Position numbers and translations under genes: made by a program
The notes under the pieces: model-generated
Told to the model about the DNA's origin: nothing
Seen by the model: the letters and a program-made list of their open reading frames with translations, nothing else
Databases searched by the model: none
DNA from: Promethearchaeati archaeon
GTDB taxonomy: Archaea; Asgardarchaeota; Heimdallarchaeia; Heimdallarchaeales; Heimdallarchaeaceae
DNA: 64,000 nucleotides
NCBI GenBank assembly: GCA_013166775.1
Contig: JABLTJ010000015.1
Coordinates: 1 to 64,000 of the forward strand
Direction: 5' to 3'
In this document: positions 663 to 59,368 of the stretch, in pieces
Numbering within the stretch: the first letter of the stretch is position 1
Layout of the letters: every line of letters starts with the position of its first letter

Positions 663-2096
663 ATGACTCCATCGAATGTATTTCTAGGTTATCATCATAA
701 TACTGGCGAGTTCAAAGAAGTAAAAGAACAAGCTAAGTTTCAACAAGTAATGGATTCAGATCCATCGGAAATCGGAAATAAATTAAGCACTCTAGGAATG
801 GATGGTGTTTTGATCTTTAATAGAGATAAAGACGAATGGCATCTTATTTTTGGAACCCATCTAGGACTTGTAGCCCAACGTACAGCAAGAAGAATGGCAG
901 ACAATATAAGCAGGTCTGGCTTTCTACTCTCTTCAGGAGAGAGAACTGGAGTAAACTGCCGGTTAGAACAAGTTTCTGAGGACAATATTGGAGATTTGTC
1001 AAAAACTGTGCAAGAAAAATATATTGAAACAGATTTAGGTGGTTTTCAAGGTGATTCTAGAGCAGATGCTTTTCCCAAAACAGTTCATGCAAGGACAGAA
1101 GTAGCGGAAGAACCAATATCAGTGGAAAAGCCAGAGGAAGAGCAAAAGCTCTTACCCCCAAGAGAATATCCTCCTCCTGGACCTGTGGTTGAATCTACAC
1201 CAGAACCTGATTTTACTGCTCCTGCCGAACCTGAACCTCTTGAACCAAGTACACTTACAATCGAAACTGAACCTTCAGTTGACGAGATAACAAAACCCGA
1301 ACCAAAAATTAGAGCAATTCCAGAAGTACCACCTCAATCTGTTGTCGAAGAGGTAGTAGACGAAGTCGTTGACGAAGTCGTTGAACAAGTGGTTGAAGAA
1401 CCAGTTTCAGAAGAAATCATTAGCGAGATCGTTGAAGAGGTCGTTGAAGAGCAACCAGTAGAAACTATTGAACGAGTTGTCGAAGAGATAGTAGACGAAG
1501 TCGTTGATGAAGTCGTTGACGAAGTTGCCAAAAAAGTTGCGGAAGCAGTTGTACAAGAACTAGGAGACGAATCTCTAAGAGGTACAGTAATGGAAGCTGT
1601 TGAAGAAAAAGTTGGGGAAGCTGTTGAAGAAAAGATAGATGAAGTTGTCAAAGAAGTCGTTGACGAATCCTATGAAGAAATGGAAGAAGAAATAGAAGAG
1701 GGTATCGAAGAAGCTGAAACAGTAGAAAAAATCGTCGAAGAAGTCGTTGACGAAGTCGTTGAAGAGATAAAAGAAGAAGTTACCGAAGCTATTGAAGAGA
1801 TAATCGAAGATGTTATCGAAGACGTAGTCGAGGACGTAATCGAAGATGTTACTGAAGGAATTAGCGAGGATGTAGCAGAAGAAATTGCTGAAACAGTCGT
1901 TGAAGAAGTTGTCGAAGATATTTCGGAAACAATTGAAGAGGTTGTTGAGGAAAAAGTAGAAGAAATTGCTGAAGCTGTCGAAGAAGCTGTTGAAGAAGAA
2001 TCTAAAGATGCTTTTATTGGTATTTCTGAAGCTATAGAGGAAACAATTACCGAAACCGAAGAATCAGAAGAAGAATCCAAAGAAGATTACTTCTAA
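663..2096 (+). CDS. Protein with a divergent gelsolin-like N-terminal domain, Pro-rich linker and long Glu/Val-rich acidic tail
   Basis: N-terminal DGVLIFNRDKDEWHLIFGTHLGLVAQRTARRMADNI resembles the gelsolin beta-beta-long-helix core. PPREYPPPGP linker. About 300 aa of EEVVDEVV-type repeats. Confidence 0.7.
   Translation: MTPSNVFLGYHHNTGEFKEVKEQAKFQQVMDSDPSEIGNKLSTLGMDGVLIFNRDKDEWHLIFGTHLGLVAQRTARRMADNISRSGFLLSSGERTGVNCRLEQVSEDNIGDLSKTVQEKYIETDLGGFQGDSRADAFPKTVHARTEVAEEPISVEKPEEEQKLLPPREYPPPGPVVESTPEPDFTAPAEPEPLEPSTLTIETEPSVDEITKPEPKIRAIPEVPPQSVVEEVVDEVVDEVVEQVVEEPVSEEIISEIVEEVVEEQPVETIERVVEEIVDEVVDEVVDEVAKKVAEAVVQELGDESLRGTVMEAVEEKVGEAVEEKIDEVVKEVVDESYEEMEEEIEEGIEEAETVEKIVEEVVDEVVEEIKEEVTEAIEEIIEDVIEDVVEDVIEDVTEGISEDVAEEIAETVVEEVVEDISETIEEVVEEKVEEIAEAVEEAVEEESKDAFIGISEAIEETITETEESEEESKEDYF
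1356..1765 (+). repeat. In-frame 12-nt repeats (gacgaagtcgtt, encoding DEVV)
   Basis: Tandem and dispersed copies of gacgaagtcgtt/gatgaagtcgtt near 1359-1383, 1494-1525 and 1740-1760. Confidence 0.7.
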
Positions 2097-48032: not shown

Positions 48033-48551
48033 TTAGTATTGATTCAAGTAACCAATTTCAAGATTTTCTTTCTCTTGAAGCATTTCGATTTCTACAATGT
48101 TTTTTATATTTTCTCTCTTTAGAAGATTCTTAAACATAAAGAAGTCAGATGGAATAATATCTTCTGTTTTCTTTTCTATCTCATTTTCTGAAAACCATCC
48201 TAATTGCCCTTCTTTTGTTTCCTTTAATCTTCCTCCTTCAACAGAAGTATGACATAAAATAATTAGGAAATGTTTCAATTTCTCTCCTGTTTCTTTATCT
48301 CTTAGTATTTCATTAAGAACAGCCTTTACTCCCAACCACTTTACTTCTAATCCTGTTTCTTCTCTAATTTCCCTAATTGTTGCGCTTCTTATTTCTTCAT
48401 TAAAGCACATCTTTCCACCAACAAGAGCCCACTTCTGTCGATAATCTCCCCTCGCTCTTTTGATAAATAACCACTTATCGTTTTTCTGAATACCTGCTAT
48501 CACCACATTCAAGATAGTTTTTTCATCCATACTGGTGCCTATTTTTTCCAA
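48033..48551 (-). CDS. NUDIX hydrolase
   Basis: Nudix box GGK...EE...ATIREIREETGL. Confidence 0.9.
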   Translation of the reverse strand: MEKIGTSMDEKTILNVVIAGIQKNDKWLFIKRARGDYRQKWALVGGKMCFNEEIRSATIREIREETGLEVKWLGVKAVLNEILRDKETGEKLKHFLIILCHTSVEGGRLKETKEGQLGWFSENEIEKKTEDIIPSDFFMFKNLLKRENIKNIVEIEMLQEKENLEIGYLNQY

Positions 48552-48637
48552 TTCTAAAACTTTTAGCCTACTTTTGATATATATTCAAAGTCATAACATT
48601 CTTAAATATTCATTATGATGCTCTTTAGCGAACCCCA

Positions 48638-49237
48638 ATGACTAGCTTTATCCGAAGAACTATTCAAGCAATTCGTAGGAAACTTGGCTATCCTGAAGTA
48701 TCGATTTTAGTAATGGGAGATGATATCCCAGCAACAAGAAATCGTGTTCTTCTTATTAGGTCTAGTACTTCGCTAAATGAATTCATCATTGACAGTGTTT
48801 TAACCAAACTACCCTACTCTGACAAATTTAAGTTTAAGCAGAAACAGTTTGAGCCTTTTGAAAGTGTTCTTTATCTTATTGATGCAACCAAAGAAGAAAT
48901 GATTAAACATGAAAGAAATTATTTCTGGGAAAAAATCGTATGGGATGAGAAAACACAGAAGCTTCCAATTGCTGTATGTGCTTATAATACTAATCTTCAA
49001 GGAGCCTTAACTAGAGGCGAATTAATAGAAAATATGTCCTTAATAAGGCTAACAGATCGTTTATGGAACCTTTTTGAAGTTCCAGATGTACCTTCTATAA
49101 TCACAGCGATGAAATGGTTAAAAAGAATAATTCATATGGGTTATGTAAAGTCTTGGGAAGAGAAAGAGAAATTATTGGTAAAAATTAAACCAATTCAAAT
49201 TCAAATACCTTCAGAAGAAGAAGAAGATATACAATAA
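48638..49237 (+). CDS. Arf-like pseudo-GTPase
   Basis: N-terminal amphipathic helix, ILVMGDD strand, [36 protein letters not shown] and AMKWL align by eye with Arf1. G1, G3 and G4 are lost. Confidence 0.7.
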   Translation: [199 protein letters not shown]

Positions 49238-49254: not shown

Positions 49255-50805
49255 ATGTCACTCACTATTGAAAAATTAATTAAAGATGGATATACAGGAT
49301 TTTCTGTAAGATCAATTCTGATGAACCCAGAATTTCGTGAGAGAGTTATAAAAGATGTTAGTGTAAGAGGTAATATTACAGGTAAAAATCTGGTAATGGA
49401 TAAATTGGCGGTTGGTGGAAAAGTACTCCTAACAGGTCCAACAGGTGAAGCAAAATCACTTTTTGCAAGAATTCTTTTGGATCACGTTGTTAGAGAAATG
49501 AACAATTTTAAATATCATATCGAAGGTTGCCCATTCTTAGAAGATGCGGGTTATATTAAGGATGTAATTGATAATTATGCATCTAATCCCTTTGCAGGAA
49601 TAAGAGTAATGCAATCTCTTTGTCCTTATTGTAGGCATAACATCGAGAAAATTTTGTCAAAAGATGGTACTTCAGTACAACTTGATAATACTAACAGCAT
49701 GCTTGAAATTACACCTAAAGAAGTTGTCGACCGTTTAGGTAAGCTTGGTGCAGCTAAAACTCTTGTAAGGAGAGCACAGTTAGATCCAAGAACTGATCCT
49801 GAAAGCTTATACATGCTATTGGCAGGTGTTGAAAACCTGGAGGAATTATTTGGTAAAGATACATCCACTACATATGCTGCTACATCTCACAAAGTTGGTG
49901 TTCTATCCCATGGTTTTATAGTGGTAAATGAAATACAAAGACTTCCGTTAACCCTTTTAGAATCTCTTATGGGTTTTCTAGAAGAACCTATGGGAATAAA
50001 ATACAATATACAAGGAGAACCAGTATACATTGATGGTGCAGTTCTTTTCACTTCCAATGCTCCATTGACTGTCTTTGGAGAAGAAAGTCAACCTATTATT
50101 AACCGTATACCTGAAGTATTATGGGCCGCTCGTGCTGTTGAAAGTAGAGAACAAATCATCAGAGATATGTTCGAAGAACAAATAATTCTATCAAGAAGAA
50201 GCATTACAGCAAATCCATCAATAATCCAACTTCATGAATTGGAAAAAGAAACCACTGATTTTGTCAGTAGATTAGCAGTAGATTTCTTAGCATATTTGGG
50301 GAACAATTCGTTACCTGAATCGTTGAAGATCAGGGGATTAAGATCAGAAAGCAGAGTAGAAAGAAATGATTTCTACTCCGGTCTTGATGAAATTCATGAT
50401 CCACAAAGAAATCCACACATAGATTTACGTACTATGAATAATATCATTGGAGAAACTGTACTTCTTCAGGCTAGAGAGGCCGATGAAGAAGCAGTTAACG
50501 TAATAACTTTAGAAAGGTTACGAGAAACTATGGGTGCATTTGATATACCTGCTTCAATGGTTAATGATGCTTTACAACAAATCAAAATACTGTTGCGAAC
50601 CTCTATAAAAGAATCAGAAGTTTCTATTAGTGTTCAGGACATCTCTGAAGATATCTCAAAGATGAAAGCTCTCAGTGATTCTGAACTTGCAAATCTAGTA
50701 GTTAAGTTCGAAGGATTGGACAAATACAAAGAGAATATTAGAACTACAATAATTGAAAAACTCAAACCATCTTATGAGCAATTGCTAAAAGTAGACTACA
50801 TTTAG
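49255..50805 (+). CDS. ChlI/MoxR-type AAA+ ATPase
   Basis: Walker A GPTGEAKS, GCPF...CPYC insertion, Walker B FIVVNE, sensor FTSN and arginine finger INRI. Confidence 0.82.
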   Translation: MSLTIEKLIKDGYTGFSVRSILMNPEFRERVIKDVSVRGNITGKNLVMDKLAVGGKVLLTGPTGEAKSLFARILLDHVVREMNNFKYHIEGCPFLEDAGYIKDVIDNYASNPFAGIRVMQSLCPYCRHNIEKILSKDGTSVQLDNTNSMLEITPKEVVDRLGKLGAAKTLVRRAQLDPRTDPESLYMLLAGVENLEELFGKDTSTTYAATSHKVGVLSHGFIVVNEIQRLPLTLLESLMGFLEEPMGIKYNIQGEPVYIDGAVLFTSNAPLTVFGEESQPIINRIPEVLWAARAVESREQIIRDMFEEQIILSRRSITANPSIIQLHELEKETTDFVSRLAVDFLAYLGNNSLPESLKIRGLRSESRVERNDFYSGLDEIHDPQRNPHIDLRTMNNIIGETVLLQAREADEEAVNVITLERLRETMGAFDIPASMVNDALQQIKILLRTSIKESEVSISVQDISEDISKMKALSDSELANLVVKFEGLDKYKENIRTTIIEKLKPSYEQLLKVDYI

Positions 50806-50843: not shown

Positions 50844-52229
50844 ATGCCCCATCGGATTTATTTCGTAACAGAAGCAGAATTCACCGATCCCTTACAACAC
50901 TATGGTAACGTAGAGTTTGTATTAGACTTCGAAGATGCGGCGCAAGTTCTGAGACTTTGGAGAAACCCACATTTAGGCCGAAGCTCTAGAGAAGGAGCGG
51001 TTCTTTCAATAGCCTCAAAAAATGCTGTGTCAATAGAGAACATTATTCAAAAGATAATGAATACTTATCTAACTCCTGAAGAGGAAGAAAGATTAGTTAA
51101 CGAACTCAAACTTCTAAGATTCATAGGAGATCAAATATTACCTGATGTTCTAGAAAGGGTTAACAGAAATGAACTCCAAACCATTGAAGATATTTTGAAA
51201 TATATTCAAGATTTATTAAGAGATTTGAAATATGAAGGGACCGTTGATTTGCAGCAACTTGCAGAGAAACTTAACCAACTTAAAGACATAGTTGATATAG
51301 AAATAACTGATGCTTTCGGTAGAAAAAAACGTATATCTCGTGAAAGTGTTATGGATTTACTAGGAAAGATACTAGGTCGTTATTTAATCAAACAAGTATC
51401 TGTTGCTCCTATTGATGAAGTTCAAAGACGTCCAAGGGGAACAATACGCTTAAAAGAGACGTACAAAAGTGCTGTATTAAGCTCTCAAACTATCCCCCCA
51501 ACATCTGTTAAACAAGAGGATATTATCAGGGTTAAGAAAGATCGAAGATCGCATGTATATTTAATCGTAGATATGAGTCAATCAATGAGAAAAACTGTAT
51601 TTGAGGGCAGCATGTCCAGATTAGACGGAGCTCTATTGACTAGTTTAAGTTTGTACTATTATTTCAAAATGATTAACAGAAGAAAAAGAAAACGATTTGA
51701 CATGTTCAAACTTGCTGTCGTTCCTATAAGAAAAAATCCTTTTGTGATTGATGATGATCGAAAAATGGAGCAATTGTTATTAACTGCTGAAGCAAGGGGT
51801 AAAACATACATGATACAAGCGGTTCAAGCAGCAATTGAACACGCTAAGAAACAACATAAAGACAAAGATATTGATGTCCAATTTACAATAGTTACTGATG
51901 GAATGCCGAATGTACCTACTTTTCCATTCAATTATAGAACTAGTACTGAATTGAAAAAATATTTTGCAGAAATCCAAACAAAAACAAAACCGGAAACAAT
52001 AGAGTGCTTAACACAATTAAATGCTATGTTCAATAGTCTGAAGAAAGATCGTTCACGAAAATGGAATATATCTTATTTTCTTATGGGTCCTGAATCTTTG
52101 AGAAATAAAGAAATATATATTCACACTACACAAATGCTAAAAGGGATTACACGACCTATTTTGATTGATCCTGCTCAAATTAAGAAACTGGGAGAGCAAA
52201 TACTAAAGGAGAGTATCTTATATGCTTAA
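50844..52229 (+). CDS. vWA (MIDAS) domain protein
   Basis: LIVDMSQSM (DxSxS), GKT and IVTDGMPN. Confidence 0.88.
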   Translation: MPHRIYFVTEAEFTDPLQHYGNVEFVLDFEDAAQVLRLWRNPHLGRSSREGAVLSIASKNAVSIENIIQKIMNTYLTPEEEERLVNELKLLRFIGDQILPDVLERVNRNELQTIEDILKYIQDLLRDLKYEGTVDLQQLAEKLNQLKDIVDIEITDAFGRKKRISRESVMDLLGKILGRYLIKQVSVAPIDEVQRRPRGTIRLKETYKSAVLSSQTIPPTSVKQEDIIRVKKDRRSHVYLIVDMSQSMRKTVFEGSMSRLDGALLTSLSLYYYFKMINRRKRKRFDMFKLAVVPIRKNPFVIDDDRKMEQLLLTAEARGKTYMIQAVQAAIEHAKKQHKDKDIDVQFTIVTDGMPNVPTFPFNYRTSTELKKYFAEIQTKTKPETIECLTQLNAMFNSLKKDRSRKWNISYFLMGPESLRNKEIYIHTTQMLKGITRPILIDPAQIKKLGEQILKESILYA

Positions 52230-53796
52230 AACCGAACTTGGGGACATAGTAAAAACCTATCTAAAAGCTAGAGAGGATTTTGAGCATCTAATTGGAGGAT
52301 CTCCAGAAAATTACCGAATTCTACTTTTTATCAATCCGGAATTACATATATCTATTAACAGAGTAATGGAAATTACTGGAACACCACAAGCGATTCTTAC
52401 AGCAGAACAGATAACTAACCTAAAATCAGCTAGAATCAGTGATTTTCTTCCAATAGGAAAGGAAACAATATATAATTCTCTACCAACTCTAATTTACCTA
52501 TCTGTTCCATCCTATGATCTTAATGAAGAACAAGAACTAACTCTGCGCGTGATGTTAGTCCATGCTTTGGCGCACGCTTACATGAACGAAAAAACTGAAT
52601 CTAATTCTGCAAGAACTCTCGCACAATTATATCAAATTGATGTCATACTGAAGGAATTAATGACAAATAATGTTTTCAAATTAAATCAAAATTCAGCAAG
52701 CAAGCATGTTTGGGCTTGGCAATATTTTCAAGATTTGATAGGTGTTATTCGCTTATTTACTGAATGTGGTGTAGAAGATTTTTACACTCCTCCTGAAAAT
52801 GCAAGGAAATATACACTCTTCAATAATTTCTCCATTGAAGCGATAAATCTCCTTTCTGAACGAGCTAAATTATCTAGAAGAAAGCACCTTCATGAACTCA
52901 TTGATGAAGGTTTTGCTCATTATGTTCAAATGAAGGAGTTGGAATATTTACTTGATAAAGGGGAATATAAACTTGTTAAAAATGAAGAAGGAAAACAAAT
53001 AAAATACCCAAATGATTTGAAAGCATTTCTCGCTCCACCTATAGGAGAAATCAGTGTTGCTATGATTGACAGATTGACAACAAAAATCGATGATGAAAAA
53101 GAAATGTTTGAAAAGTTATTTTCTTATAAATCTGATTTAGAGTTTTTACAAGAATTTACTTGGGATGAAGTAAAGGATTTGCTTGCAGTTAACAAAAATC
53201 TTCACTCAGAACATGTAGTTGAAAGCTGGCATTCTTCTAAGAGCAGATGGACCGATATTTGGTCAGTTTATGCTTATGGTTGGAGAATGATTGAAGAGTA
53301 TACTAGAAAAATATACAGAAAGAAATATACCAATTTTGGTCAACTCTTAGATGATAATCCTGCAATAACGAGTAAGGGATATGTAAGAGTAGATGAAAAA
53401 AAAGTGTATGTGTTTGAGGTAAATGATTATGGAGTTGGAATTGATCAATTATTGATACTTCATAATCATATGTCACTGTATAGAGACGATTTTCGCACAA
53501 TTTTACCTGCTTTTGCGGATATAATTGTTTTTAAGAAAATCGGAGGAATACATGTTGCAACCTTATTTGCAGTTCATAAAACTAAACATCAACCTCTATC
53601 ACCATACAATATACCTGTTATAACAAGAGCAGTTCAAGTTACAAAACGAAAAGACGCATATAAATTTGATTTAGACGAGGAAGAAGAGGATAAAATCGAT
53701 GTGAGTAGAGTAGACTACAATTATTTAAGAAAACTCACACAACCACAAAGAGGTGCTATTAGTTATCTTATCAAAGAGGGGATGTTCGAATTATGA
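52222..53796 (+). CDS. Gluzincin-like protein lacking the catalytic Glu
   Basis: MLVHALAHAYM (HExxH with E to A) and downstream DEGFAHYV third-ligand motif. Overlaps both neighbouring genes. Confidence 0.65.
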   Translation: MLKTELGDIVKTYLKAREDFEHLIGGSPENYRILLFINPELHISINRVMEITGTPQAILTAEQITNLKSARISDFLPIGKETIYNSLPTLIYLSVPSYDLNEEQELTLRVMLVHALAHAYMNEKTESNSARTLAQLYQIDVILKELMTNNVFKLNQNSASKHVWAWQYFQDLIGVIRLFTECGVEDFYTPPENARKYTLFNNFSIEAINLLSERAKLSRRKHLHELIDEGFAHYVQMKELEYLLDKGEYKLVKNEEGKQIKYPNDLKAFLAPPIGEISVAMIDRLTTKIDDEKEMFEKLFSYKSDLEFLQEFTWDEVKDLLAVNKNLHSEHVVESWHSSKSRWTDIWSVYAYGWRMIEEYTRKIYRKKYTNFGQLLDDNPAITSKGYVRVDEKKVYVFEVNDYGVGIDQLLILHNHMSLYRDDFRTILPAFADIIVFKKIGGIHVATLFAVHKTKHQPLSPYNIPVITRAVQVTKRKDAYKFDLDEEEEDKIDVSRVDYNYLRKLTQPQRGAISYLIKEGMFEL

Positions 53797-54560
53797 TGGA
53801 TTTCTTTAGAGGTTTATCAATCAATAAAAAAATAAAAAGCAACGAACCTTTAGATCGTGCCTATTACGCTTTATTTTTACAGAAAAAAGGAAAAGCTAAA
53901 TCTATTAAAAAGCTTCTACCTCTTCTTGAGGACTCAGATTGGAACGTGAGAAATGCAGCAGTATCAACGGTTGTTTATCTAGTAGAAAAGTTACCTGAAA
54001 TAAAGGAAAACGTTCTAAATCATCTTCACAAACTTGTTGATGAGAGCACCTTGGCTGTTAGACTCTCAATATTGGAAGCCATTGGTCAGTTGAAAGATTA
54101 TGCATCAAAGCCTTATCTTATTAAGATTTTAGAAGAAAGTGATTATGATTTACAGTATGCCGCTATAAGAGCCATTGGATATCTGGATGATGTTGATGTA
54201 CTATTCCCATTAGAAAACGTCGTTTATGCACTTGATTATATCACTAGAAGAGCAGCAATTCTATCTGTTGTAAGAATTTCAGAGTCTGCAAACGAAGAAA
54301 CAAGGATAGAGAAATTAACACCCCATATCCATATAATAATAGAATCTTATCTTGAGATAGAAAAACTAGGAAACTTGATTTGCGGTATAATGGATTTTGG
54401 TGATTCAGATCAGTTTCCTGTAATGAAAGGTTATGCTGAATCAGCTATAGTCAAACTTGAAGGGCTTATAGAGCAAAAGGATTATAGTGTAGAATTATAT
54501 CAAAATTTTGCTAAACTAATCTTTCCAATATACTTCCCAATAGATGAAAACTTAATTTAG
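53793..54560 (+). CDS. HEAT/PBS-lyase repeat protein
   Basis: LEDSDWNVRNAAV, VRLSILEAIGQL, LQYAAIRAIGYL and TRRAAILSV. Confidence 0.88.
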   Translation: MMDFFRGLSINKKIKSNEPLDRAYYALFLQKKGKAKSIKKLLPLLEDSDWNVRNAAVSTVVYLVEKLPEIKENVLNHLHKLVDESTLAVRLSILEAIGQLKDYASKPYLIKILEESDYDLQYAAIRAIGYLDDVDVLFPLENVVYALDYITRRAAILSVVRISESANEETRIEKLTPHIHIIIESYLEIEKLGNLICGIMDFGDSDQFPVMKGYAESAIVKLEGLIEQKDYSVELYQNFAKLIFPIYFPIDENLI

Positions 54561-55592: not shown

Positions 55593-57560
55593 ATGCCGTT
55601 AAATCTAGAAACACCTTTAAAACCCAGAGGAGACCAACCAAAAGCTATAAAACAATTGGTAGAAGGTATTCAAAAAGGATATCGACATCAAACACTTCTA
55701 GGAGTAACAGGTTCGGGAAAAACTTACACAATGGCTTCAGTCATTGATAAGATTAAGAAACCTACTTTGATTATTGGTCCCAATAAAACTCTTGTTGCAC
55801 AACTATTTGGTGAATTCAAGACACTTTTCCCATCAGCCAGTGTGAACTATTATGTTAGTTTTTATGATTATTACCAACCTGAAGCATACCTTCCTTCAAA
55901 AGATTTGTACATTGAGAAAGATGTAGATATAAACCGCGAAATAGAGCGTCTAAGGCATACAGCCCTAGAAGCTTTATCTACACGTGATGATGTAATAGTA
56001 TGTGCTACTGTCTCTTGTATTTATGGTACTGGACCTCCTGAAGTTTATCGTTCCCGAAGAATAGTTCTCAACATTGGAGATAACCTTGATAGACAAGATT
56101 TGATGTTGGAATTGGTAAAGAATCAATACTTGAGAAATGATGTAAATCTAGAACGCAAAAGCTTTCGTGTGAGAGGAGATTCGATAGATATTTTTCCCTT
56201 GTATGGCGACTACATTTATCGTATCGAATTCTTTGGGGATGAAATTGAACGTTTAACTGCTAGACATCCTGTATCAGGGGAGAAAATAAAGGAATACGAT
56301 CATTTATCTATTTTTCCTGGTACGCAGTATCTCGCCAATGATGCATTCTTTGAATCAGCACTCGAAGATATCAAATTAGAGCTAGATATGCGTTTAGCTG
56401 AGTTTGAAAAGGAAGAAAAAATAGTTGAAAGACATAGATTACGGCAAAAAACACTATATGATTTAGAACTTCTGAGAGAAACTGGTGGATGTTCAGGAAT
56501 AGAAAACTATTCTCGTCACTTTGATAGAAGAAAACCAGGAGAAAAACCATTTTCTTTACTTGATCATTTTCCTGAAGATTTCTTACTTATTATAGATGAA
56601 TCTCACCTAACGATTCCTCAACTTCGTGGAATGTATGCAGGAGACTATTCAAGAAAGAAAAACTTAATCGATCATGGTTTTAGACTACCATCAGCTTTTG
56701 ATAACCGTCCTTTCAGGTTTGAAGAAACAGAGAAATACATGAAATCTGTAATGTTTACCAGCGCTACTCCAAGACAATATGAGCACGATATTTCTGATCA
56801 AGTTGTAGAGCAAATCATCCGTCCAACAGGACTAGTTGACCCTAAGATTGAAGTGAGGGGAACAGATGGACAGATTACTGAACTAGTAAGTGAAATTAAC
56901 CAACGAGTTAGTAAAGGGGAAAGAGTATTAGTAACCACCATAACAAAACAGAGTGCTGAAATGCTTTCTGATTATCTTCTTGATATGAACATTAAATCCG
57001 TATATCTGCATCATGAGGTAGACACATTAGATAGAATTGAAATTTTAAGAGATTTAAGATTGGGTAAATATGATGTTGTAGTAGGAATTAATCTTCTGAG
57101 AGAAGGTTTGGATCTTCCAGAAGTAGCTCTTGTAGCTATACTTGATGCTGACAAAGAAGGTTTTCTAAGATCTAAGAGTTCTCTAATCCAACTTATGGGA
57201 CGAGCAAGTAGAAATGTTCACGGTAGTGTGATACTCTATGCAGATAACTTGACGGATTCTATGAAAGGGGCTATAACTGAAAATAATAGAAGAAGGCAAA
57301 TTCAGAGGGAATATAATGAGAAACATGGAATCCAACCTACTACAATACGCAAAGAAGTTAGATCGATTGTTGAAACATTGATGCAAGTAACTCCCAAAGA
57401 AGAAGAGAAAATAGAAGTCCCTGAAGACTTAACAACTGAAGACATCTTCTATGTGATAGAAGATCTAAAAGAAAAGATGGCAGAAGCAGCTGGAACATTG
57501 GATTTTGAAAAAGCAGCTCTTTATCGTGATAAAATCAAAGAACTCGAGAAATTGGTGTAA
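55593..57560 (+). CDS. uvrB: Excinuclease ABC subunit B
   Basis: GVTGSGKT, YDYYQPEAY, DESH, GRASRN and C-terminal UVR motif. Confidence 0.98.
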   Translation: MPLNLETPLKPRGDQPKAIKQLVEGIQKGYRHQTLLGVTGSGKTYTMASVIDKIKKPTLIIGPNKTLVAQLFGEFKTLFPSASVNYYVSFYDYYQPEAYLPSKDLYIEKDVDINREIERLRHTALEALSTRDDVIVCATVSCIYGTGPPEVYRSRRIVLNIGDNLDRQDLMLELVKNQYLRNDVNLERKSFRVRGDSIDIFPLYGDYIYRIEFFGDEIERLTARHPVSGEKIKEYDHLSIFPGTQYLANDAFFESALEDIKLELDMRLAEFEKEEKIVERHRLRQKTLYDLELLRETGGCSGIENYSRHFDRRKPGEKPFSLLDHFPEDFLLIIDESHLTIPQLRGMYAGDYSRKKNLIDHGFRLPSAFDNRPFRFEETEKYMKSVMFTSATPRQYEHDISDQVVEQIIRPTGLVDPKIEVRGTDGQITELVSEINQRVSKGERVLVTTITKQSAEMLSDYLLDMNIKSVYLHHEVDTLDRIEILRDLRLGKYDVVVGINLLREGLDLPEVALVAILDADKEGFLRSKSSLIQLMGRASRNVHGSVILYADNLTDSMKGAITENNRRRQIQREYNEKHGIQPTTIRKEVRSIVETLMQVTPKEEEKIEVPEDLTTEDIFYVIEDLKEKMAEAAGTLDFEKAALYRDKIKELEKLV

Positions 57561-57565
57561 ACTGT

Positions 57566-59368
57566 ATGAGCCTTTTCACTGACCTTGAAGAAATTCCAAA
57601 TGAAACAGGAGTTTACCTCATCAAGGACAAAGACGAAAAAATAATCTATGTTGGAAAAGCTAAAAATCTGAGAAACAGAGTAAAACAACATTTTCAGACA
57701 ACAGAATATCAAAAAGAGGCGAAACTTCAAGAATTAGCTCATAGAGTGGATTGGATTATAACAAGAAATGAACCAGAAGCACTTATTCTGGAAAAGAAAC
57801 TAGTGCGACAATTAATGCCTAAATTGAATAGTATGTTAAAGGATGATAAGTCTCATTTATTAATCAGAATCACTTTGGAAGAAGAATATCCACAACTTCT
57901 CATAGTAAGGGAAACAGATCCCAGAAACAAGAAGAGTGTCTATTTTGGACCCTTCCCAAACAACACAATGTTAAGGCAAACTGCAAAGCTTGTCTTGAGA
58001 CTTTTCCCAATATGTAATTGTGGGAAGAATATTGAAAGAGTTGCTAAGAAGGGATCTTCGGTCAGATGTATGCGTGAAAGATTGGGAAGATGTTTATCTC
58101 CTTATAAAAACAATATTACAACAAGTGAATATAATAAAACTGTGAGAAAAGTTGTTTCTTTTCTAAAAGGAGATGTAGCTGATTTACTTGATAGTTTAGA
58201 GGTAGAGATGTGGGAAGCTTCTGAGCAGTCAAATTTCGAAATAGCAGGAAATCTTCGTGATCTTACACAAGCTGTTCGTACAATCCTTAATGTTCAGGAA
58301 GATATTCATTCCGTTCGGAAGAATGTTGATGTTATTACTTATGTAGAAGAAGAGGGAAATATAGCTTTCACCAAGCTAGAAGTGAGAAATCATCGCGTTC
58401 AAAATATAGGTAACTTTCTCTATCTAAAAGAAGAAGCTAAACTTTCAACATTGGGAGAAGTTCTGGCATTTATCTACGGAACTGAAACTACTAAGTATGG
58501 CCTTCTTTTAGTTGAAAATTTCAAGACCCGATTTCAAGTTAATCTGAAAATAACGATTTATACTCCCAGATACAAAACTGATCATGAACTCGTGAAAATA
58601 GCAGAGAGAAATGCAAGGAATGAGATGTTTCGTTATATGAGAGAACTTCAATACCTGCATGATTCTGCTTCTATTCTGGAGGAAATGCAAGAAATACTCC
58701 AACTACAAAATGTTCCTAAAATAATCCATGGTTATGACATTTCAACACTAAAAGGTCAGCATTCTGTTGGATCATGTGTTGTTTTTGAGGATGGAAATCC
58801 AAACAAAAAATTGTATAGACGATTCAGGATTCGGAAGGAATACACTGATCCTGATGATTATGCAATGATGCGAGAAGTGATGACAAGAAGATATACCTCT
58901 GATGTTCTGAAATCAGATCCTTCACCTGATCTTATAATAGTTGATGGAGGAAAGGGACAACTAAATATAGCATTAGAGGTGTTGAAGAAACTAAATCTAG
59001 ACATTCCTGCAATTAGCATCGCAAAGAAGAATGAAGAAATTTTTGTTGAATGGTTAGATACACCTATAATATTTGAACAGAGTTCTCTTATTTTGCGTTT
59101 AATCCAATATATAAGAGATGAGGCTCATAGATTTGCAATAAGCTATCATAAAACGCTTAGAAGGAAAACAGTAAGAGACACTATTTTCGAAACGATTAAG
59201 GGAATCGGAAAAGCTAAGGTTCAGATTCTTTTGCATGAATGCAAGACAATTGAAGATATTGCAGCAGCAAAAGTAGAGGACATACAAAAGCTACTTTCTG
59301 TAAACGAAGAAATTGCAACAAAAGTAGTGGAAGTTGCTAAAAAAAATAGAAACAAATCTCATTTATAA
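57566..59368 (+). CDS. uvrC: Excinuclease ABC subunit C
   Basis: GIY-YIG (GVYL...YVGKAKNLRNR), YDIS, VDGGKGQ, RDEAHRFA and HhH. Confidence 0.97.
   Translation: MSLFTDLEEIPNETGVYLIKDKDEKIIYVGKAKNLRNRVKQHFQTTEYQKEAKLQELAHRVDWIITRNEPEALILEKKLVRQLMPKLNSMLKDDKSHLLIRITLEEEYPQLLIVRETDPRNKKSVYFGPFPNNTMLRQTAKLVLRLFPICNCGKNIERVAKKGSSVRCMRERLGRCLSPYKNNITTSEYNKTVRKVVSFLKGDVADLLDSLEVEMWEASEQSNFEIAGNLRDLTQAVRTILNVQEDIHSVRKNVDVITYVEEEGNIAFTKLEVRNHRVQNIGNFLYLKEEAKLSTLGEVLAFIYGTETTKYGLLLVENFKTRFQVNLKITIYTPRYKTDHELVKIAERNARNEMFRYMRELQYLHDSASILEEMQEILQLQNVPKIIHGYDISTLKGQHSVGSCVVFEDGNPNKKLYRRFRIRKEYTDPDDYAMMREVMTRRYTSDVLKSDPSPDLIIVDGGKGQLNIALEVLKKLNLDIPAISIAKKNEEIFVEWLDTPIIFEQSSLILRLIQYIRDEAHRFAISYHKTLRRKTVRDTIFETIKGIGKAKVQILLHECKTIEDIAAAKVEDIQKLLSVNEEIATKVVEVAKKNRNKSHL

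Follow-up and report, generated by a model that had tools for sequence, protein, structure and literature searches.

Our analyses support the identification, within a 64,000-nucleotide stretch of a Heimdallarchaeaceae genome (hereafter the window), of a gene whose 199-residue product is an Arf-derived G-domain that has lost every G motif. We assign this protein, here termed pseudo-Arf, to a pseudo-GTPase branch of the Arf family because it is Arf-derived yet fails in four defining features of a working Arf. Its gene heads a cluster of five that includes a ChlI/MoxR-like AAA+ ATPase and a VWA protein, and we think it fairly probable that pseudo-Arf is an adaptor, permanently bound and free of nucleotide, in an AAA+/VWA machine of a kind not yet described.

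Research on the Arf GTPases of Asgard archaea treats them as forerunners of eukaryotic membrane traffic; the published members all have intact switches. The sequences described here suggest that one lineage of Heimdallarchaeia may have converted the Arf domain into a nucleotide-free module attached to an ATP-driven machine, a route previously described for eukaryotic pseudo-GTPases only. Motif-based censuses of Asgard small GTPases overlook or drop proteins of this kind. A candidate five-protein complex is now defined for reconstitution.

Homology of the C-terminal half to Arf

The gene, and the part of its product that is recognizably related to Arf, have the following positions in the window:

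48638..49237, + strand: Arf-derived pseudo-GTPase gene, 199 aa (ORF call, Pfam, PDB search, orthologs and fold)
48854..49147, + strand: C-terminal half homologous to Arf, aa 73-170; the signature of the family lies here and consists of R..FWE..IW and of G[AS]L[TS]..E[IL]IE with a continuation that ends in.W (Pfam, PDB phmmer and hhalign)

The sole Pfam match of the protein is Arf (PF00025; E 7.2e-5; aa 70-161), with a score of 22.8 bits that is marginally above the cut-off of 22.3 and an alignment to profile positions 78-170 that covers the C-terminal half only. Nearly all chains retrieved from the PDB by phmmer belong to the Arf family; Arl8A/B, Arl3 and Arl1 scored best (E 6e-5 to 1e-3), and the structures of Asgard ArfR were also among them. 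When a profile of 21 orthologs was compared by hhalign with the canonical Arf-type paralogs of the same genome, homology was detected over aa 73-195 (95% probability; E 2e-8). That genome contains 41 matches to PF00025; the family HMM, applied to open frames from 30 of these, matched Arf-type paralogs (GL..[AV]GKT) only, and no paralog of Rab/Ras type was matched in this set. An earlier note on this DNA had proposed from inspection that the C-terminal half is Arf-like, and the Pfam, hhalign and phmmer results (the last to Arl proteins) all bear this out. The residue pairings drawn by eye were likewise recovered: those of the beta4 stretch with AVIFVIDAAD and of YNTN with NKQD by hhalign and MAFFT, that of an 11-residue stretch with LGLHLDLKDRTF, and the A..W pairing of the last helix with its counterpart in Arf. 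The N-terminal half has no detectable sequence similarity to Arf, yet in the predicted structure it supplies the first two strands of the G-domain and helix 1.

Loss of G motifs and retention of the fold

Three segments of the protein occupy the positions of motifs that define the nucleotide-binding site of a working Arf:

48716..48745, + strand: degenerate P-loop and start of helix 1, aa 27-36, with G27, R34, N35 and R36 invariant within Heimdallarchaeaceae (MAFFT/ortholog alignment)
48806..48859, + strand: shortened switch/interswitch, aa 57-74, about 15 residues shorter than in Arf, with no DxxG and with one strand and the switch II helix absent
48983..48994, + strand: degenerate G4, YNTN for NKxD (translation and hhalign)

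In a MAFFT alignment with canonical Arfs, GDDIPATR falls column for column under GLDAAGKT, departing from the G1 pattern GxxxxGK[ST] by replacement of the second Gly with Ala, of the phosphate-binding Lys with Thr and of the Mg-binding Thr with Arg. Switch I (PTIGQN) corresponds to a gap in the same alignment, with deletion of its Thr, and at G3 DVAGQ lies over KLPYS, so that neither DxxGQ nor a full-length interswitch is present. At G4, hhalign places YNTN under NKQD, and orthologs carry YN[ST]x rather than NKxD; the SA motif of G5 was not found in pseudo-Arf when compared by hhalign with the canonical Arf paralogs. Every detail of motif loss reported in the earlier note (the P-loop GDDIPATR, the shortened switch without DxxG, and YNTN) is thus reproduced by alignment. 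On sequence grounds, pseudo-Arf is predicted to be independent of nucleotide.

The AF2 model (the best of five and the only good one, with a mean pLDDT of 73.5, built from a shallow alignment of 21 sequences) depicts a G-domain with five strands, compared with the usual six. Only 18 residues lead from strand 2 to the strand equivalent to Arf beta4 in this model, and the domain as a whole is about 15 residues shorter than Arf6. In Foldseek searches of the PDB the best matches were all Arf/Arl, with Arf6 first (2e-7) and with the Asgard ArfR entries 8oun and 8ouk (GerdArfR1 and HodArfR1, respectively) among them. VIA aligned residues 21-166 of the model with residues 14-174 of Arf6 (Z 16.6; rmsd 2.3 Å over 140 residues), and its best 50 entries were all Arf/Arl/Sar1. 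The predicted fold is accordingly a small G-domain of Arf type, and not the unrelated fold that the earlier note had named as grounds for abandoning its proposal. The protein shows the three properties by which a pseudo-GTPase is recognized: it has the fold of a G-domain, it has lost the G motifs, and selection has maintained it.

Conservation of the family and a wider clade without P-loop

A word-indexed search of 5.8 billion proteins identified 44 relatives at 53-96% identity, all from MAGs of Heimdallarchaeota/Heimdallarchaeaceae except one labelled Thorarchaeota, and bearing the NCBI names 'hypothetical' or 'ADP-ribosylation factor-like protein'. An alignment of 21 of the 44 contains 45 invariant positions, with GK[ST] and NKxD in none of the sequences. 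Median dN/dS (Nei-Gojobori, unsaturated pairs) was 0.10 for pseudo-Arf; the AAA+ and VWA genes gave 0.056 and 0.036, respectively. The reading frame is intact in every genome. Because the motifs are lacking in all 44 orthologs and dN/dS is about 0.10, we regard the protein as functional and the motif-less condition as its conserved state; orthologs with intact G motifs, which in the reasoning of the earlier note would have marked this copy as merely decaying, did not occur among those aligned. The disappearance of all catalytic motifs and a Pfam score barely over its cut-off might suggest that a canonical ArfR gene gave rise to this one as a pseudogene or a paralog in decay, but we find the notion hardly credible, and reject it, given intact frames throughout, 44 orthologs at 53-96% identity, the 45 positions invariant in the alignment, the low dN/dS, and the span of the family across several taxonomic families.

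A HMMER profile search of 1.84 billion representatives ranked about 20 further clusters, at 20-28% identity, before any canonical Arf, and all of these are without the G1 motif and without the G4 motif at the aligned position. The distant subfamilies share a signature consisting of R..FWE..IW in helix 3 and G[AS]L[TS]..E[IL]IE, ending in ..FE, from helix 4 to strand 6; their N-terminal halves vary freely, and some keep a vestigial 'RVGKT'. Across the subfamilies, conservation extends to none of the residues that once formed the P-loop. This is the best argument from sequence that the family does not share an ability to bind nucleotide. The pattern favours assignment of these proteins to the nucleotide-free class of pseudo-GTPases.

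The main rival to a nucleotide-free adaptor supposes that pseudo-Arf binds a nucleotide or phosphate ligand through non-canonical residues, and would thus be an atypical switch or a nucleotide-bound, inactive pseudo-GTPase. Within Heimdallarchaeaceae, T33-R34-N35-R36 is near-invariant at the N-terminus of helix 1, where it could form an anion or nucleotide site, and the former pocket is surrounded by invariant G27, N117, Q121 and G122. Neither TRNR nor these pocket residues are conserved in other subfamilies of the same clade, however; the former P-loop contains acidic residues, and the P-loop Lys, Mg-binding Thr, switch I Thr, DxxG, NKxD and G5 SA are all absent. We consider such binding unlikely.

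The 24 rows without a P-loop group together (SH-aLRT 99) in a maximum-likelihood tree of 74 rows, on a stem of 1.33 changes per column; the 100 C-terminal columns alone again gave a single clade with SH-aLRT 99. Since these trees derive from 'quick' searches and contain long branches, a single origin of the P-loop-less clade is likely rather than proven. The tree singles out no canonical Arf group as sister to the pseudo-Arf family.

A five-gene cluster and its products

The candidate promoter and the four genes that follow pseudo-Arf are located in the window as follows:

48603..48609, + strand: TATA-like TAAATAT, candidate cluster promoter, about 32 nt 5' of the ATG
49255..50805, + strand: ChlI/MoxR-like AAA+ ATPase, 516 aa (Pfam, profile and Atlas neighbours)
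50844..52229, + strand: VWA protein, 461 aa, with intact MIDAS (DMSQS ... TDG) (translation and Pfam)
52222..53796, + strand: 524-aa protein with a zincin-like N-terminal fold (predicted structure and VIA)
53793..54560, + strand: HEAT-repeat protein, 255 aa (HEAT_2, E 5e-15)

Pseudo-Arf is thus the first gene, followed on the same strand by those for the AAA+, MIDAS-VWA, zincin-like and HEAT-repeat proteins; successive genes are separated by gaps of 17 and 38 nt and then overlap by 8 and 4 nt. The upstream spacer of 86 nt is common to pseudo-Arf and a divergent Nudix gene. In eight orthologous upstream regions with an overall column identity of 68%, TAAAnAT is invariant, and we infer that TAAATAT at 48603-48609 represents the archaeal TATA box of the cluster. 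The Nudix hydrolase gene itself (48033-48551, - strand) is the immediate upstream neighbour in nearly all loci of Heimdallarchaeaceae, including those in which the gene beyond it is inverted (L055-L059), and was not detected beside the cluster in other families. On the other side, uvrB and uvrC (55593-59368, + strand) begin about 1 kb after the cluster; uvrB is found downstream in most Heimdallarchaeaceae loci and is relocated in some.

In the AAA+ protein, Walker A is intact (GPTGEAKS; GPTGEAK[ST] in the family) and Walker B, VVNEIQ, contains Asn-Glu instead of Asp-Glu. Between the two lies an insert with conserved H88, C92, C123 and C126, whose pattern of His and Cys looks like a zinc-binding site. 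The protein falls far under most Pfam cut-offs, with Sigma54_activat reaching 21.8 bits (cut-off 20.2) and AAA_5 remaining below its cut-off; the Atlas clusters closest to it, at 0.95-0.97, belong to ChlI/MoxR families (Mg_chelatase, AAA_5 and Sigma54_activat), and neither sequence nor profile searches of the PDB returned a significant relative. In the VWA protein, DxSxS and TDG are present and Pfam VWA_2 is below cut-off. Searches of PDB sequences with the VWA and 524-aa proteins gave nothing significant.

The model of the 524-aa protein (pLDDT 76.7) yielded no Foldseek match below E 0.04. Comparison of the model with 48,161 chains by VIA produced an almost pure list of zincins that match over residues 1-345, middling in score (Z 5.4-9.2) and coherent in content, made up of the catalytic domains of M1, M32, thermolysin, ACE and TAF2. 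HALAH replaces HExxH, the second His not being conserved in other families, and EGFAH is found downstream; all sequence relatives of the protein are from Heimdall-group MAGs. As modelled, it is probably a second pseudo-enzyme of the cluster, zincin-like and without the catalytic Glu.

No gene of the cluster matched the families PF08298, PF04285 or PF04293 (PrkA/YeaG, YeaH/DUF444 and SpoVR/YcgB) in this genome at E values up to 10. Comparison by hhalign of cluster alignments with E. coli YeaG, YeaH and YcgB gave probabilities of 0.4-2.6%, with single-sequence targets that make it a weak probe of very remote homology. The Atlas groups the AAA+ protein with ChlI/MoxR and not with PrkA, and at the sequence level a relation to the PrkA-YeaH-SpoVR module is thus not supported. 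Among the longer proteins searched, none contained pseudo-Arf fused with another domain, a result that constitutes weak evidence.

Distribution and linkage across Asgard genomes

In a survey of 399 Asgard genomes, pseudo-Arf was present in one copy per genome wherever it occurred, with the following distribution:

Family f1 (the family of the window, which holds Ca. Heimdallarchaeum aukensis and endolithica): 29/30 genomes
Family f2 (same order): 1/1 genome
Family f4 (same order): 12/12 genomes
Family f7 (another order of the class): 11/12 genomes
Family f5 (a large family of the same class): 0/22 genomes

The family was found in none of the other Asgard genomes surveyed (about 310, or about 330 with f5). 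It ranges over four to five families of Heimdallarchaeia, including the LC_2/Kariarchaeaceae type: OLS23185.1, from Heimdallarchaeota LC_2, is a member and matches the f4 type, and this organism is assigned to Kariarchaeaceae in a table of the ArfR preprint (bioRxiv 10.1101/2024.02.28.582541). Genomes of family f3 contain a far more diverged member of the P-loop-less clade, 158-170 aa in length. Such diverged members are found at 1516-1992 (- strand) in L106 and at 1366-1878 (+ strand) in L107, apart from the AAA+ gene, which in one genome is about 9 kb off on the same contig.

The AAA+ gene was identified in 29/30 genomes of f1, 1/1 of f2, 3/3 of f3, 12/12 of f4 and 9/12 of f7, and in none elsewhere among the 399. 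The single f1 genome without it is the same one that is without pseudo-Arf, and presence and absence of the two genes are near-identical across the entire set. The order of the five genes is kept in 29/29 Heimdallarchaeaceae loci, as far as contigs reach, and in 8/12 loci of f4 and f7, where identities are about 51% for the AAA+ protein and 32-39% for pseudo-Arf and where homologs of the window's flanking genes were not detected beside the cluster. Linkage is broken in genus g13 and in families f2 and f3, in which pseudo-Arf lies away from the AAA+ gene.

These distributions bear on the possibility that pseudo-Arf is a free-standing membrane-targeting scaffold whose adjacency to the AAA+ gene is mere inherited synteny. 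A basic N-terminal helix that is strongly amphipathic would suit such a scaffold; within Heimdallarchaeaceae, synteny extends to the neighbouring Nudix, cysK and threonine dehydratase-like genes, and in a few genomes pseudo-Arf is unlinked from the AAA+ gene. Adjacency and common strand nevertheless persist into other families and another order, where homologs of the window's flanking genes were not detected beside it, and the two genes are present or absent together across the 399 genomes with few exceptions. Because the linkage is maintained across order-level divergence and the phyletic pattern is the same, a dedicated subunit is likelier than a free-standing scaffold, which we judge quite improbable.

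A further proposal, that the cluster is a MoxR/VWA-type conflict (defence) system with pseudo-Arf as its sensor or adaptor, draws on the bpMoxR cluster that is one of the Atlas neighbours of the AAA+ protein, and on MoxR-VWA modules, which reportedly (Kaur et al. 2020) form the core of some conflict systems. Against it, NCBIfam and PADLOC gave nothing useful for pseudo-Arf or its cluster partners, with no PADLOC match above noise, and none of the domains recognised is an effector. Nearly every genome of the lineages concerned has the cluster, in one copy; its occurrence tracks taxonomic families, its housekeeping neighbourhood is stable, and dN/dS is low. A role in defence is in our estimation very improbable.

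The N-terminal helix and conserved surfaces

One further feature precedes the G-domain:

48644..48685, + strand: basic amphipathic N-terminal helix, aa 3-16 (AF2 helix; hydrophobic moment 0.96, charge +4)

The basic, amphipathic character ascribed to this segment in the earlier note is confirmed by the AF2 helix at aa 3-16 and by an N-terminal 11-mer having an Eisenberg hydrophobic moment of 0.96 and a net charge of +4, values that place it in the top 1% of the protein's own 11-mers. The helix is Arg-rich and of low hydrophobicity (mean H -0.46), and it is not universal, since one subfamily has an N-terminus that is merely short and proline-containing. Its basic charge and strong amphipathicity make a role in membrane targeting plausible, as judged by sequence. 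With switch II deleted and an interswitch of insufficient length for the toggle of Arf, the helix would lie beyond control by nucleotide state, and may be either always exposed, in which case it could bind membrane or another acidic surface, or always docked. The likeliest site for a partner is the surface conserved across the family, formed by helix 3 and helix 4/strand 6.

A proposed route from GTPase to adaptor

If pseudo-Arf is a nucleotide-free adaptor, its ancestor would have been an Asgard Arf-type GTPase. In an early lineage of Heimdallarchaeia, the Lys and Thr of the P-loop, the Thr of switch I, the segment with DxxGQ and switch II, and NKxD would have disappeared. Retained in this process would have been the core fold, the N-terminal basic amphipathic segment, and the strongly conserved surface of helix 3 and helix 4-strand 6. 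Pseudo-Arf would be produced together with the ChlI/MoxR-like AAA+ protein, the MIDAS-VWA protein, the zincin-like protein without catalytic Glu, and the HEAT-repeat protein. Its conserved C-terminal surface would hold a partner, and the N-terminal helix, without an interswitch toggle to retract it, would be constitutively free for membrane or another acidic surface.

A bolder extension, to which we allow only a small chance, is that pseudo-Arf, the HEAT protein and the AAA+/VWA/zincin-like core constitute one membrane-associated remodelling complex, in which the nucleotide-free Arf fold grips a helical solenoid. If true, this would provide a prokaryotic precedent for the Arf-plus-solenoid pairing of eukaryotic coats and adaptors, and one confined to the archaeal class closest to eukaryotes.

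Comparison with known systems

Eukaryotic pseudo-GTPases such as CENP-M and the pG domains of p190RhoGAP reportedly employ the G-domain fold as a structural or adaptor module, as reviewed by Stiegler and Boggon. Pseudo-Arf resembles these in having lost the motifs and kept the fold, and differs from them in GTPase family and in domain of life. Pairs of MoxR-class AAA+ and VWA proteins include RavA-ViaA, NorQ-NorD, CbbQ-CbbO and CoxD-CoxE. The cluster is similar to these in its succession of an AAA+ protein having ChlI/MoxR Atlas neighbours and a MIDAS-VWA protein, and dissimilar in that its AAA+ protein scores well short of most Pfam cut-offs and lacks relatives by sequence in the PDB. None of these pairs is known to us to include a subunit resembling Arf, a zincin-like pseudo-enzyme or a partner with HEAT repeats. 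Literature searches found no relevant paper joining pseudoGTPase and archaea and no archaeal pseudo-GTPase, no paper joining Asgard with MoxR and vWA, and no description of the pseudo-Arf family.

Of the proteins described so far, the closest are the ArfR (AArf) GTPases of Asgard archaea. ArfR (AArf) proteins possess conserved G boxes, bind membranes in a GTP-dependent manner, and are represented by crystal structures with nucleotide (bioRxiv 10.1101/2024.02.28.582541; PMC11914678). HodArfR1 (PDB 8OUK/8OUL) and GerdArfR1 (8OUM/8OUN) have the same fold as pseudo-Arf and are among its best Foldseek/VIA matches; both kinds are Asgard proteins with an N-terminal amphipathic helix that lacks a myristoylation signal, and the C-terminal half of pseudo-Arf is homologous to the ArfR-type paralogs of its own genome. 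Unlike ArfR, pseudo-Arf is without any G motif, has a switch region about 15 residues shorter, belongs to its own long-branched clade, and is tied to an AAA+/VWA cluster. The ArfR preprint deferred 'divergent' and 'unannotated' Asgard GTPases to later study (bioRxiv 10.1101/2024.02.28.582541). The accessions MBY8999406, MCG3215392, OLS23185 and others of the family do not appear in those of its supplements that were examined, which does not imply their omission from the study.

The best sequence match of pseudo-Arf is to Arl8A/B (PDB 4ILE and 1ZD9; E 6e-5; aa 73-148), a preference over other Arf/Arl proteins that is within noise and implies no orthology. Arl8 is not myristoylated and uses an N-terminal amphipathic helix (Vargova preprint, bioRxiv 10.1101/2024.02.28.582541); unlike pseudo-Arf, it is a working GTPase.

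Other Arf-related frames in the same genome

Five further matches to PF00025 that failed an initial motif filter proved to be Rag/Gtr-like or otherwise to have an intact P-loop. The Rag/Gtr-like matches of this genome (L013, L016 and L019) carry HKxD for NKxD and have intact P-loops, and two of them are located within longer proteins of 300-400 aa. Elsewhere in the genome, an open frame of 111 aa (G000:C65, 88375-88656, + strand) shows weak similarity (E 0.005) to the Arf model in its C-terminal half, and could be another degenerate remnant of an Arf gene.
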